Shown here piece by piece: positions 6,294-55,152 of a stretch of DNA of 57,151 nt (position 1 is its first letter; each line of letters begins with the position of its first letter). The stretch lies in IMG/VR virus record IMGVR_UViG_3300035211_000082, positions 1 to 57,151 of that record. One strand, given 5' to 3'. The position numbers were made by a program, and so were the translations under genes. The DNA is from a virus. The notes beneath the pieces are model-generated. The model was not told the origin of the DNA. It saw nothing but the letters and a program-made list of their open reading frames with translations, and ran no database searches.

Positions 6294-6458
6294 ATGAACA
6301 TGTATTTAGATTATTTTTCATTCTGCGATGCTTGGCAAGAAAAAATTACTAGTGACATTTTTGATAAAATAATTACAGAAAAAGACAAGATAGAACAAGA
6401 AAAACGTAGCGAAATAATTGAAAGGCTAAAAAAGGATAAGAATGACAAAAATAAGTAA
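6294..6458 (+). CDS. hypothetical small protein (54 aa; not in ORF track)
   Basis: ggaggttaat ATG; MNMYLDYFSFCDAWQEKITSD...; overlaps next start. Confidence 0.45.
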   Translation: MNMYLDYFSFCDAWQEKITSDIFDKIITEKDKIEQEKRSEIIERLKKDKNDKNK

Positions 6459-6705
6459 ATTAAAGGACTTGAAAGAAATGACAGTTATAGCAATTATAGC
6501 AATGTGTATTTTGTTTTTTACAATTTGCAGTATTGCAGGATTAATTGGCAAAACAATAATTGAGTGCTTAAAATGGATATTTAAGCGTAATAAAGCTTCT
6601 AATTGTAATCTTACTTGCATTAAGTTTAATGAATGTATTAATCATGAGGACTGCATTAATTGTGTTGATTATGATAAATATATTGGTAAGGGAGATATTA
6701 AGTAA
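6442..6705 (+). CDS. small membrane protein with Cys-rich tail; paralog of 7013..7159
   Basis: hydrophobic IAIIAMCILFFTICSIAGLIG, then C..C..C..C and ...CINCVDYDKYIGKGDIK. Confidence 0.55.
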   Translation: MTKISKLKDLKEMTVIAIIAMCILFFTICSIAGLIGKTIIECLKWIFKRNKASNCNLTCIKFNECINHEDCINCVDYDKYIGKGDIK

Positions 6706-51276: not shown

Positions 51277-53409
51277 TTATTTTAATATTTTTCTTAACTT
51301 ACTAACAAAATTAGTTTTTCTAGTCCAGTCTAAACTTTTTCTACAAATTTCAAATATTTCTGATTGATTTTTAGCTAATATTATGCAGTTTTGCTTTGCT
51401 CTAGTTATTGCTGTATATAGCAACCTATGATCACTTATGCAATTATTCTGTAACAATATCAATACGCTTTTGCTCTCTGAACCTTGCAGCTTATGCACTG
51501 TACAAGCATAAGCATACACAATTTTCTTAAGCTCACTATTTTTAAATATAATCCTAAGATTTAAAAAATAAAAATATATTGTTGTTTCTTTCTTTGTAAC
51601 ATGTTCAACTATGCCCATGTCTCCATTAGATATGCCTTTTTCACGATCATTTTCTAAGTTAATTACTTTATCATTAACCCTAAATTTACATTTCTTAAGT
51701 TCAGGATTGACATTGTCTTTAACCTTGTATTTCTCATTTATTGTTTCTCTAGTTTTATTTGTTATAGTTGCAATTTGGAAATTTTTATAAAATTCCAAAA
51801 CATTGCTATACTTACTCTTAAATTTAAAGTATATCTTTTCAATTAAGTCCTCTTTCAACTCGCCTATAAAAAATTCAGCAGTTTTTATAATATCAATCTC
51901 TTTTTTGTTCCTTACTTTTTTTGCATTCTTAATTATAAGGCTGTCCTTGGCTTGCCTAAATGTCTCAGGCAAGTGCAAATGTGTAAAACATTTGCTTTCA
52001 ATCAAGTCATTTAATACCTGACCGCAGCCAACGCTTGGAAGCTGGAATGGATCACCAACAAATAATATTTTTTCAAATTTTAATCTGACCTGGTTTAACT
52101 TGTTGATTGTTTTTAATAGCCTGTAAAATAAGTGTTGATCAATCATACTGCTTTCATCTACTACTATTATTTTTTTATTTGTTCTTAGACTAAATCTATC
52201 TAATACTGCACTTGCACTTACTAATGTCTCCATAAACTCTATATAACAAACTAGGCTATGTATTGTAAATGCTTTTTGGTTTGCGCATTCTGACAATCGG
52301 CAGGCTGCTTTGCCCGTCGGCGCTAAAAGCAATGATGAATAATTAAATTTGTTCAAAACATCTAGTAATGCGCTTGTTATAGAACTCTTGCCTGCCCCTG
52401 CCCCGCCAGTAAGAATTGATATATTGTCTCCAAATGTTATTTTTGATAACGCTTCTTTTTGGCTGTCTGCTAATTCAAGATTATTGTAATTTTCAAAATC
52501 TTTGATTGAGTCTTGAAATGTTTCGACATTTATATCATTTTGTTCTATTATTTGATATTTATTAAACTGCGCCAGCAAAGAAGGACTTATAGTCTCAGCT
52601 TCGAATATTTCTTTTAGATAAACTTTTTTATCTTCTGTCTCAAGCAATTCATTCTTGTCTATAAAATCATCTACCGTTTCGTTTGCTGGCAAATACCTAA
52701 CCTCATTTATCAGGTATTCCTTGAACTCGCTGAATTCAACATAATTACTGTTCTTGCTGTTAAATTGTTTAAACTTATGTTCAACCAAATATTTATTTCT
52801 TTCTGTATTATCTAAGCTAATATTTAATTTTGTCCTGGCAATTTCATCAACCGCTAAGAATCCTATGTTTAACTTAGATAAGTACTTGTATGGCTGATCA
52901 TACAACTGTTCTAAGCTCCTAATCGACTTACTTAATTTGCTTGCATAATTATAATTATCAATTATGCAAGCGATCTCGGCTGTTATGTTTTCGGCCTCAG
53001 CTTGTTCCAACTTTTTCAAAACTAACTCTGACTTTTTCGGACCTATTCCTTTTATCTTTTTGCCAGCCTCGACATGATTTATAAAGTCTTGGGCTGATTC
53101 AAACTTATATGTTTCAAACATTTCATCAATTGATTTCCTGGTTATGCCCTTAATCTCCGACAGAATACATTTGAAGTATTCTGTGCTTTTTGTGTCTACT
53201 TTTTGGTATTTAACCCAAATTGTTTTGCCAAAACTATTTTCTGTTTGAGATCCTTCGACTATTATGTTAGGCAATAATTTTAATTCTATGCCCTGTATTG
53301 CTAATGTTATGTCATCAGCTACAAATGCACCTGGTTTATAAAAGTTCCAGTCTGATTTCGCTGGTGCTTTATAGAAATTATATTCGTTGTTGTTGAATTG
53401 ATATTCCAT
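51277..53409 (-). CDS. RecD-like SF1 DNA helicase (AAA_30 + UvrD_C-like) with N-terminal HhH
   Basis: 710 aa; IKGIGPKKSELVLKKL; Walker A ILTGGAGAGKSS; IIVVDESSMID; YACTVHKLQGSE; YTAITRAK. Confidence 0.8.
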   Translation of the reverse strand: MEYQFNNNEYNFYKAPAKSDWNFYKPGAFVADDITLAIQGIELKLLPNIIVEGSQTENSFGKTIWVKYQKVDTKSTEYFKCILSEIKGITRKSIDEMFETYKFESAQDFINHVEAGKKIKGIGPKKSELVLKKLEQAEAENITAEIACIIDNYNYASKLSKSIRSLEQLYDQPYKYLSKLNIGFLAVDEIARTKLNISLDNTERNKYLVEHKFKQFNSKNSNYVEFSEFKEYLINEVRYLPANETVDDFIDKNELLETEDKKVYLKEIFEAETISPSLLAQFNKYQIIEQNDINVETFQDSIKDFENYNNLELADSQKEALSKITFGDNISILTGGAGAGKSSITSALLDVLNKFNYSSLLLAPTGKAACRLSECANQKAFTIHSLVCYIEFMETLVSASAVLDRFSLRTNKKIIVVDESSMIDQHLFYRLLKTINKLNQVRLKFEKILFVGDPFQLPSVGCGQVLNDLIESKCFTHLHLPETFRQAKDSLIIKNAKKVRNKKEIDIIKTAEFFIGELKEDLIEKIYFKFKSKYSNVLEFYKNFQIATITNKTRETINEKYKVKDNVNPELKKCKFRVNDKVINLENDREKGISNGDMGIVEHVTKKETTIYFYFLNLRIIFKNSELKKIVYAYACTVHKLQGSESKSVLILLQNNCISDHRLLYTAITRAKQNCIILAKNQSEIFEICRKSLDWTRKTNFVSKLRKILK

Positions 53410-53417
53410 AGCTTAAT

Positions 53418-53700
53418 CCGTTAAACAAAACTTATAAAAACTTTATAAAAGTTATTCATCTTGTCTTATAAAGGTAATAGTAAAAGACAGGGTTTAACCG
53501 TTAAACAAAACTTATAAAAGTTAATAAAGCTTATTCCTCATTCATTACGTCCCATTTGGTATAATCTTTAAAGATTATAGCTACTTTGGTTTGATATAAC
53601 GCTCCAAAGGCTTAAATTCCCGTATAACGCACGGTACACATTAACATTATCTTTCAAATGATACTATGCTAATTTTGATAAATTTATTGCAGCATTTAAA
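53418..53700 (-). ncRNA. candidate TnpB omega-RNA scaffold region (overlaps the tnpB 3' end and runs to the right end)
   Basis: Minus-strand stems ccgt..acgg, ctttgg..ccaaag, ataatcttt/aaagattat downstream of the tnpB stop; the position matches known omega-RNAs; exact ends unknown. Confidence 0.45.
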
Positions 53701-54791
53701 TCTCTATCAATCATCAAACCACAATCACATTTATAAATCCGGTCTGATAATTTTAAATCTTTCTTTATTTGCCCGCATGAGCTACACATTTTAGAGCTCG
53801 GAAACCACCTATCAGCCTTGACTAAATTAATTCCATAAAATTTAGTTTTATATTCCAATATATTTGCAAATGTATATAAACATTGTTCTTGTATAGCTTT
53901 TGATAAATGTCTATTTTTCATCATTCCTGATATATTTAAATCTTCAATTACTATATTTTGTGGTTTGGTTTTCACCAAAGATGTAGTAATTTGATGAATA
54001 TTATTCAATCTAATATTAGTCAATCTTCTATAAATAAGCTTTATTTTCTTTTTAGTTTTCATAATATTTTTAGTCTTGTTATAACGGACTTCACCACCTT
54101 TCATTTTAATTTTATTCTTTTCATATTTACGACTTACTTTTCTTTGTAATCTCTTAAGCTTCTTTTTAATCTTTTTAACAGAGCTAGTTTTATTAATATT
54201 TTTATACTTTTCACCTGTATTAATAATTGCTAAATCTTTTATTCCTAAATCAATTCCAATAGTTTTATCTGTCAATTCTTGATATTCTGTTTCTACTTCA
54301 ATTCCAACTGATAAATACCAATACTTGCTATCATGTGTTATTCTAGGATTTTTATATTTTGTATCTACAGGTATTCGTTTTGGTTCTGATAATTCAATCC
54401 ATCCTATTTTTTCAATCAATACAGATTTTTCTTTGACCTTTAATTTCTCACAGTCATTGTAAAAACTTGTTTTACATTTATTCTTTTTCTTAAATTTGGG
54501 CTGTTTAGCTTGCCCTTTAAAAAATCTCTTATATGCTAAACATAAATCTTTAACAGCTTGTTTTGGTACATTATTAGATATTTCATTTAACCAGGCTAAC
54601 TCAGTTTTCTTTAATTGTGTTATTTCTTTTCTTAAGTCGTTGTCAGATATAAATTTCCCGCCATTTTTGTAATTAACTAATTGTTTATCTAAGGCCCAAT
54701 TGTAAATATATCTTGCTGTTCCTGAAGCTTTCCAAAATAATTTTTCTTGTTCTTCTGTAGGTTTTAACCTAACTTTTATTGCTTTTATCAT
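53664..54791 (-). CDS. tnpB: TnpB RNA-guided nuclease, catalytic residues intact
   Basis: MIKAIKVRLKPTEEQ...; RuvC-I IGIDLGIKD, RuvC-II IVIEDLN, zinc finger CSSCG...CDCG, RuvC-III IDRDLNAAINL. Confidence 0.85.
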   Translation of the reverse strand: MIKAIKVRLKPTEEQEKLFWKASGTARYIYNWALDKQLVNYKNGGKFISDNDLRKEITQLKKTELAWLNEISNNVPKQAVKDLCLAYKRFFKGQAKQPKFKKKNKCKTSFYNDCEKLKVKEKSVLIEKIGWIELSEPKRIPVDTKYKNPRITHDSKYWYLSVGIEVETEYQELTDKTIGIDLGIKDLAIINTGEKYKNINKTSSVKKIKKKLKRLQRKVSRKYEKNKIKMKGGEVRYNKTKNIMKTKKKIKLIYRRLTNIRLNNIHQITTSLVKTKPQNIVIEDLNISGMMKNRHLSKAIQEQCLYTFANILEYKTKFYGINLVKADRWFPSSKMCSSCGQIKKDLKLSDRIYKCDCGLMIDRDLNAAINLSKLA

Positions 54792-54921
54792 TCCCCACCT
54801 GCTCAATTTTCTCATCTAAAATACGTCTAATCAATTCAGCGAGTGGAATCCCCTTCTCTTTTGCCATTTTTTCAAGAATATTATGCTGTATTTCAGATAA
54901 ATAAATCTGAAATCTTCTCAT
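54769..54921 (-). CDS. ribbon-helix-helix (CopG-like) protein overlapping the tnpB start (50 aa; not in ORF track)
   Basis: gaggtgttaat ATG; MRRFQIYLSEIQHNILEKMAKEKGIPLAELIRRILDEKIEQVGNDKSNKS. Confidence 0.6.
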   Translation of the reverse strand: MRRFQIYLSEIQHNILEKMAKEKGIPLAELIRRILDEKIEQVGNDKSNKS

Positions 54922-54952: not shown

Positions 54953-54981
54953 ATTATACATTTAATAAGCGTATATGTAAA
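54953..54981 (-). promoter_or_regulatory. promoter TTTACA-N17-(TGt)ATAAT for RHH-tnpB, inside the element left end
   Basis: minus strand: tttacatatacgcttattaaatgtataat. Confidence 0.5.
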
Positions 54982-55152
54982 TACTATAAAAGTATTAATA
55001 TTTATAACTTTTATAAAGTTTTCTTTAACAGTTAGCTGCCTCCAAAATTTTAATCTATATTAAGATAACTAACTTGTCGAAACAGTCTCAAAATCTGTTA
55101 AGATATCAAAATTTCGAGTACAATTTCGACCAGTTATTTTTTTGAAATTCCA

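Follow-up and report, generated by a model that had tools for sequence, protein, structure and literature searches.

The TnpB nucleases of IS607 elements are guided by right-end element RNAs (reRNAs) derived from the RAGATH-18 motif, and structure 8IAZ is that of such a complex (Ren et al., Cell Res 2024, PMC11061315). The published transposon-associated motif (TAM) of an IS607 TnpB is AGGAG or GAGGG, and in the reRNA of ISFba1 positions -1 to -21 before the guide are disordered, their deletion leaving cleavage unaffected (PMC11061315). The ends of IS607 elements carry repeat units and a GG terminus, and integration takes place at GG (PMC13565253). On the route proposed from TnpB to Cas12 (Altae-Tran et al., PNAS 2023, PMC10691335), arrays arise by duplication of the 3' part of the guide RNA. 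The 57,151-nt viral record IMGVR_UViG_3300035211_000082 (IMG/VR; positions 1 to 57,151, hereafter the window), a complete phage record with terminal repeats, carries a tnpB element whose right end is present twice. As judged from its sequence, the element is a non-autonomous, phage-borne TnpB/reRNA element of the IS607 family without tnpA. A doubled end of this kind was seen only once; it is an uncommon structural variant that most plausibly records the history of insertion, the outer of the two copies being probably a leftover or duplicated transposon end.

Set beside ISFba1 (8IAZ), the window element is alike in its TnpB (E = 2e-77, with the RuvC triad), in a RAGATH-18 motif downstream of tnpB, in a guide that follows the GG end, and in a Shine-Dalgarno-like 5' flank, TGGAG-G here against the published TAM AGGAG (PMC11061315). 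It differs from ISFba1 in lacking tnpA and bearing a ribbon-helix-helix (RHH) open reading frame (ORF) instead, in lying in a phage and inside a ribosome-binding site (RBS), in a shorter joint region (36 nt rather than 50 from RAGATH-18 to the guide), and in the doubling of its terminal module with 44 nt between the copies.

The doubled right end

Read on the minus strand from the stop of tnpB (53664), the order is RAGATH-18 (53610-53534), 36 nt ending ...TTTTATAAGTTTTGTTTAACGG at 53498, a unique stretch of 44 nt (53497-53454), then AACTTTTATAAAGTTTTTATAAGTTTTGTTTAACGG to 53418, the flank ATTAAGCT and the ATG of a helicase gene (53409). The terminal ~22-40 bases of the transposon are present twice. 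As the original prediction held, and as reading of the sequence confirms, the inner copy aacttttataagttttgtttaacgg ends at 53498 and the outer copy aacttttataaagtttttataagttttgtttaacgg at 53418, both on the minus strand, and the would-be guides behind them are ttaaaccctgtcttttacta (53497-53478) and attaagctatggaatatcaa (53417-53398), respectively. The intervening segment had been put at 51 bp; it measures 44 nt (53454-53497) between the two strings so delimited and 58 nt between the exact repeats, which are 22 nt long. The 20-mer TTATAAGTTTTGTTTAACGG has two minus-strand copies, one with its end at 53498 and the other at 53418, where shuffles predict 0.02 (0 of 100 shuffles reached two), and occurs at no third place in the 57-kb record with up to 3 mismatches allowed. 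In a repeat search the doublet is the top direct repeat of its region (27 nt, 93% identity, 80-nt spacing).

That the doublet was produced by assembly is extremely improbable, and this explanation was rejected on the agreement of two assemblies, IMG/VR and Logan. The record is metagenome-assembled, and the sole full-length holder of the sequence may be its own source sample. Against an artefact, the Logan assembly of a wetland run matches base for base (100% identical across 7.5 kb including the doublet, at ~10x depth, though it may derive from the same sample or reads), and the exact repeat of 22 nt is shorter than assembler k-mers and has unique sequence on every side.

The two copies are not equivalent with respect to the guide RNA. 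The inner right end (53498..53533, minus strand), a short form with two modules, ends in AACGG and is contiguous with the scaffold. A family nhmmer profile made from 61 distinct sequences, spanning the scaffold through AACGG, runs unbroken from the scaffold to 53498, which marks the inner copy as the place where the reRNA scaffold should have its 3' end. The distance from RAGATH-18 to AACGG is 36 nt both at this end and in Staphylococcus phage 110, and blastn homology with the Staphylococcus phage elements ends at 53507. The outer right end (53418..53453, minus strand), a long form of two tandem modules plus the terminal GTTTAACGG, was delimited by alignment to empty sites and has no scaffold in front of it; it matches only profile positions 94-127, that is the last ~35, and has no RAGATH-18. 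Because only the inner copy follows a structured scaffold, the RNA 3' end in use should be the inner AACGG (53498), so that a working reRNA would end there with guide TTAAACCC...; an RNA built as in the relatives would carry the guide TTAAACCCTGTCTTTTACTA. The first 20 nt of the unique segment (44 nt, 53454..53497, minus strand) make up this guide of an inner-ending reRNA, and a degenerate further module, CCTTTATAAGAC, lies within the segment at 53463-53474 (minus strand).

An internal duplication of 10-11 nt, earlier remarked on in the outer copy, is present there, yet it is not peculiar to this copy, since tandem modules are the normal build of a right end in this family. Modules of ~10-11 nt of the form TTTATAA(A)GTT, two to three per end, are found in L095, L139, L189, L113 and Staphylococcus phage 110. 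The right end of L095, the closest to those of the window, reads AATAAGCTTTATT-AACTTTTAGAAAGTT-TTTATAAGTTTTGTTTAACGG; compared with it, the inner copy is short of one module and the outer copy of the AAGCTTTATT piece. L139 and the marine-sediment contig X2 each have one long-form right end, the 3' part of which equals the outer copy of the window. The duplicated part corresponds to the disordered and dispensable segment of the ISFba1 reRNA, which argues that the repeat is not the part bound by TnpB; by analogy, it would be a transposase-recognition end and linker rather than TnpB-held scaffold.

Boundaries and insertion site

The gene behind the outer copy encodes a RecD-like SF1 helicase of 710 aa (51277..53409, minus strand; Pfam AAA_30, AAA_19, SH3_13 and UvrD_C_2), and its RBS is split. 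Empty sites in related phages have the form GGAGG/ATTAA..ATG, with the slash at the junction; they read TTGGAGG/ATTAAAACCATGG in L204 and CTGGAGG/GTTAAATTATGG in L202, and over a longer span CTGGAGG-GTTAAATT-ATGG (L202) and GATTAAAATCTTGGAGG-ATTAAAACC-ATGG (L204). In the window the left flank, GATTAAAATTTTGGAGG, ends at 55039, and the outer copy is followed by ATTAAGCT-ATGG. With the outer flank attached, the left flank aligns to both relatives without a break at the junction; with the inner flank attached, it does not. From these empty sites and alignments, the inserted DNA is read as 55038-53418, 1621 bp with both right-end copies included. The outer copy is, on the same alignments, the physical boundary of the transposon, and the insertion is placed between the Shine-Dalgarno sequence and the ATG of the helicase gene, splitting its RBS.

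The GGAGG at 55039..55043 (minus strand), recognised from the empty sites as the original Shine-Dalgarno sequence of the helicase, is now left flank, TAM-like target and GG crossover site at once. The outer-end flank ATTAAGCT with the ATG (53398..53417, minus strand) represents the ancestral spacer and the beginning of the helicase gene, and would form the guide of any outer-ending RNA. Left flank and outer flank together reconstitute the phage RBS consensus GGAGGATTAA, which is found 12 times in the window against 0.18 expected. At the occupied junctions, GGAGG/CAGC...AACGG/ATTAAGC, the element ends in GG and sits after GG, with no target-site duplication. Both right-end junctions are near-palindromic (inner GTTTAAC-G-GTTAAAC, 53484-53506; outer GTTTAACGGATTAAGC, 53404-53426; both minus strand); the TTAA of the flank mirrors the TTAA of the end and may simply reflect the RBS spacer consensus ATTAA.

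The same placement is seen across the family. Left flanks are Shine-Dalgarno-like purine runs ending in GG (AAGGAGG, GGAAGG, TGAAGG etc.) in 21 of 21 members with a located left end, and right-end conservation among the family stops exactly after AACGG. Among 74 non-redundant right-end flanks, 35 have an ORF (50 aa or longer) whose start follows AACGG by 5-14 nt, with a mode of 7-9 nt. The helicase ATG stands 8 nt downstream of the outer copy, within this mode; downstream of the inner copy no such ORF start codon is found within 60 nt. The guess of a GGAGG-like TAM is probably right for this element; the left flanks in the family are Shine-Dalgarno-like, and the published TAM is AGGAG or GAGGG (PMC11061315). 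The flank of the element is TGGAG-G or GGAGG, which differs from AGGAG by a single base when the register is set by a guide starting at the last G, and the left flanks would fit the published AGGAG with the last G common to TAM and crossover.

Homologues of the helicase were found on metagenome contigs by protein search, with 86% (L202, L203) and 75% (L204) identity, and none of them has a tnpB upstream. At the DNA level, blastn against phages and a close-relative scan of viral contigs gave no relatives of the gene. A further homologue, P0002 (1032 aa, 85% identity), is 320 aa longer, and its match extends over only 53% of the query; an intein or some other insertion may be present in it. The 63-kb related phage L202 does carry a TnpB gene, on the opposite strand ~0.8 kb downstream of its helicase gene (L202:7915-9039, minus strand). 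As a donor this gene was rejected, being of an unrelated family (27% identity).

The element and its relatives

The tnpB gene (53664..54815, minus strand) encodes an IS607-type RNA-guided nuclease of 383 aa with Pfam domains HTH_OrfB_IS605, OrfB_IS605 and Cas12f1-like_TNB. It aligns with ISFba1 TnpB (8IAZ) at E = 2.3e-77 with the catalytic motifs in register, the RuvC triad D189, E291 and D372 is intact, and the motifs IGIDLG, IEDLN and DRDLNAA are in place; an exact look-up of the protein found none on record. The RAGATH-18 core of the reRNA scaffold (53534..53610, minus strand) matches Rfam RF03064 over the full model with 59.2 bits, the gathering threshold being 44.9. A minimum-free-energy fold of the 273-nt region is no better than those of shuffles (z = 0.54).

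The left end (55000..55038, minus strand) reads CAGCTAA-CTGTTAAAGAAAAC-TTTATAAAAGTTAT-AAAT with subterminal repeat modules, and matches the left-end consensus of the family directly after GG. It is an inverted repeat of the right-end modules: the near-palindromic ~11-nt units TTTATAA(A)GTT are subterminal repeats present at the left end (55006-55020) and in both right-end copies, with an exact 15-mer at 55006-55020 and 53439-53453. Inside the left end, a promoter-like TTTACA-17-TATAAT (54953..54981, minus strand; 11/12 consensus) points towards the RHH gene, tnpB and the reRNA and beyond them. It is the only strong predicted site in the region, and no terminator is predicted between it and the helicase gene, so both right-end copies are probably transcribed on one RNA.

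The RHH ORF (54769..54921, minus strand; 50 aa), which overlaps the start of tnpB, is DUF6290/CopG-like (Pfam DUF6290 9.5e-7, RHH_1 1.7e-4) and occupies the slot that tnpA has in relatives. Relatives were taken from IMG/VR and from a scan for the terminal motif TTATAAGTTTT-NNNN-AACGG. Those of 2.0-2.07 kb with the same left-end and right-end motifs encode a tnpA with MerR helix-turn-helix and resolvase domains (e.g. L129), and the resolvase domain PF00239 has no match anywhere in the 57-kb phage; the window copy is therefore a non-autonomous derivative. The original prediction had likened the possible relic to palindrome-associated transposable elements (PATEs). A frame of PATEs and IS605 hairpins proved wrong, the tnpA of the relatives being of MerR and resolvase type and the ends GG-bounded as in IS607. 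Classical PATEs belong to the IS200/IS605 family, with a Y1 transposase, subterminal hairpins and targets of the TTAC/TTGAT type, not to IS607. An IS200/IS605 hairpin reading of the modules themselves was also rejected; they are near-palindromic, but the family pairs with a serine recombinase and uses GG and Shine-Dalgarno-like targets.

The closest described relatives in phages are in Twort-like Staphylococcus phages (phage 110, OQ448195.2, in which RAGATH-18 is annotated; Twort ORF021), which have the order tnpB, reRNA, right end at ~68% DNA identity. These elements end in the same ...TTATAAGTTTT-NNNN-AACGG terminus, and likewise lie just upstream of a start codon. The phage 110 element (68% identical), for which the sister phage phiIPLA-C1C provides the empty site, served as a calibration case and bears out the boundary after AACGG. 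Its junction reads ...AAAAGG / ...GACAACGG with a short ambiguity. Unlike the window element, the Staphylococcus phage elements lack an RHH ORF and have just one right end, and the phage 110 junction has a 7-nt ambiguity, GGATGAA, identical at both junctions (L085:1385-1400 and 2785-2800; L086:680-700). In phage 110 the final codons of the gene upstream are altered by the insertion, with a stop codon retained. In marine sediment runs (X2/X3), relatives of the element that are 90-99% alike over parts of tnpB and reRNA occupy several other sites, each with a single right end and differing flanks, e.g. AACGG/TTAAAAATGAAC. The window element adds to the published IS607 TnpB/RAGATH-18 family, from which it differs in the lack of tnpA, the RHH ORF and the location in a phage RBS.

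Origin of the second end and its meaning

The outer copy (53418-53453, possibly with the third module at 53463-53474) would be a second transposase-recognition end, left over or duplicated from a sibling end. It may have arisen in one of three ways, and it is likely to very likely that the true one is among them; the ranking of the three is not firm, and the order of events is one that we infer. An earlier insertion at the GG of the RBS may have shrunk to a right-end remnant of ~80 bp, with a sibling then re-entering the retained GGAGG. Alternatively, the doublet may have formed elsewhere and been mobilised as a unit through its outer GG, or a local rearrangement among the module repeats may have taken up filler DNA. 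That the doublet is the relic of an older solo right end was already part of the original prediction. A relic is the better-supported kind of explanation, given the scaffold-less outer copy and a precedent in L095; the pictured geometry, with an element landing next to the relic, did not hold, since both copies are inside the inserted DNA and the empty sites of related phages place the outer copy, not the inner, against the original target.

The precedent, L095 (IMGVR_UViG_3300014205_005400), is a solo right-end remnant of ~75 nt (L095:250-346) without tnpB and just upstream of a gene start, which has the terminal 20-mer in identical form (GTTT variant). The L095 remnant keeps part of the scaffold 3' end; an ORF coming from upstream terminates within it, and ~12 nt separate AACGG from the start of the next gene. 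In contrast to such solo-end relics and PATE-like remnants, the relic-like copy in the window follows a complete element at a distance of 44 nt. In L170 (reverse strand, ~6380-6460), a right-end terminus of 22 nt, TTTTATAAGTTTTCAGTAACGG, lies ~50 nt upstream of the start of another tnpB; it has no recognisable left end and may be a remnant of a tandem insertion or a circle junction.

Either copy delimits a unit that is consistent in itself. The unit from the left end to the inner GG is 1541 bp, and its excision joint, TGGAG-G-TTAAACCC..., would match the inner guide; the unit to the outer GG is 1621 bp, and its joint is the true empty site, which would be matched by the outer guide only. Since a scaffold precedes the inner guide alone, the TnpB now encoded should guard the 1541-bp unit from loss and be blind to the ancestral empty site. 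For the helicase gene, the retained end might serve in place of the RBS or as a 5' leader.

Several points weigh against a leftover end. The terminal 22 nt are identical in both copies, including a GTTT that is rare elsewhere (1 of 116 other sites); an old relic should have drifted, so that a recent event, selection or homogenisation would be needed. The exact inverted 15-mer of the left end is common to the outer copy and not to the inner, which would fit the left end and outer right end as one cognate pair, and likewise argues for a recent event or constraint. A relic that starts exactly at the old left-end junction needs a special deletion, e.g. an aberrant recombinase event, and a leftover end does not account for the origin of the 44-nt segment. 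By analogy with the flexible linker of ISFba1, a longer linker to the outer guide would also be compatible with the data.

Local duplication in place after a single insertion, by slippage between the ~11-nt modules, by a template switch between them or in break repair, and without any function, is rather unlikely. It would suit the identical 22-nt termini as a recent event. Removing 80 nt between two AACTTTT motifs restores an L095-type single right end almost exactly, and the relatives differ at this very point, with an 11-nt insert in L139, a 21-nt replacement in X2 and none in L095. A simple tandem duplication is insufficient, however, because the 44-nt segment is not copied from neighbouring sequence, and filler DNA from another source would have to be invoked. 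In a blastn-short search against all fetched loci and the window the segment gave chance-size matches only; Smith-Waterman comparison with the element's own scaffold gave p ~0.2-0.3 on shuffles, and the family nhmmer profile does not reach the segment. A resemblance of GACAAGATGAA to the 3' strand of RAGATH-18 (10/11) is suggestive and unsupported by the profile.

Functional readings of the doublet turn on the inner guide and its possible targets. Should the left end and outer right end be the true ends, the inner guide TTAAACCCTGTCTTTTACTA might be an internalised, fixed cargo that, irrespective of the landing site, aims TnpB at one sequence in a rival phage, a plasmid or the host. This would be a step toward a locus that bears a spacer. 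Both copies and the unique segment do lie within the inserted DNA, the outer copy has a complete module set, a family-typical flank and the 15-mer in common with the left end, the catalytic residues of TnpB are intact, and the inner junction has no TAM, so that the locus would not cut itself. Such a fixed guide is nevertheless improbable. A TAM-flanked match to it, a search suggested with the original prediction, was found in none of the collections of phages, plasmids, IMG/VR, JGI metagenome contigs and GTDB genomes. Matches of the segment or inner guide to phages and plasmids were at chance level (E ~3-9 only), and an exact 18-mer scan gave 13 matches (1 in viral, 7 in metagenome and 5 in genome contigs), none with AGGAG or GGAGG upstream and 12 of which look like chance. 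The single viral match is in a giant-virus contig, without TAM. Nor does the arrangement recur: comparison with the right ends of homologous elements, likewise proposed at the outset, found a second terminal module (at most 3 mismatches, within 300 nt) in 0 of 128 family right ends in the examined loci. The segment is conserved nowhere, and the relic scenarios yield the same layout trivially.

One of the 18-mer matches is longer than the other 12. It lies in a metagenome contig (L211:6128-6157, minus strand), within the gene of a 524-aa large serine recombinase, and is exact over 23 nt, AACGG plus TTAAACCCTGTCTTTTAC, with a GTTTAAC 3 nt further up. The match is probably coincidental: its probability by chance, with 12 hits, is estimated at a few per cent, and the bases upstream are AACGG, which is no TAM. 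A conserved KRQGL recombinase motif as a common source of the 18-mer matches was rejected, their ORF contexts being unrelated or non-coding.

A working mini-array of two guides is still less probable than a fixed guide. A read-through RNA would have a guide after each AACGG, with the unique segment and the 5' end of the helicase gene as targets; a scaffold-joined RNA with ATTAAGCTATGG... would be made, aimed at TAM plus ATTAAGCTATGGAATATCAA. The left-end promoter without a predicted terminator before the helicase gene would place both copies on one RNA, and in ISFba1 the ~21 nt that precede the guide are flexible and can be dispensed with (PMC11061315), so that linker length may be tolerant. 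Against this, the outer copy has neither RAGATH-18 nor joint region and is ~80 nt further from the structured scaffold, neither a processing site nor a second scaffold is present, the layout is not recurrent in the family, and there is no sign of selection on the spacer. The earlier description of the locus as a minimal scaffold-end/spacer/scaffold-end array is therefore not supported: the repeat matches the stretch that is disordered and dispensable in ISFba1 (PMC11061315), the doublet is unique among 128 right ends and there is no TAM-flanked target. Set against the route proposed from TnpB to Cas12 (PMC10691335), the doublet is formally alike, with repeat, unique segment and repeat directly downstream of a TnpB guide-RNA scaffold. 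It departs from that route in a repeat that is transposase-recognition and linker sequence and not effector-binding, and in having no adaptation machinery, a single instance and a spacer without target. The doublet resembles a repeat-spacer-repeat only formally, showing none of three testable traits of an array, namely an effector-bound repeat, recurrence and a TAM-flanked target.

Were the inner guide a functional cargo, or were both guides used, the locus would offer a rare case in nature of a TnpB guide that is independent of the insertion site. Such independence, if true, bears directly on the beginnings of Cas12 arrays, and a fixed guide would stand, as a natural one-spacer form, between TnpB guides templated by the flank and Cas12 loci that bear spacers. 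If the outer copy is a leftover end, the preferred reading, the value of the locus is descriptive: in phages, remnants of the right ends of IS607 TnpB elements endure beside gene starts, and one RBS can bear a layered insertion history. The habit of the family is insertion at the GG of a Shine-Dalgarno sequence, where AACGG plus ~8 nt substitutes for the RBS of the downstream gene.

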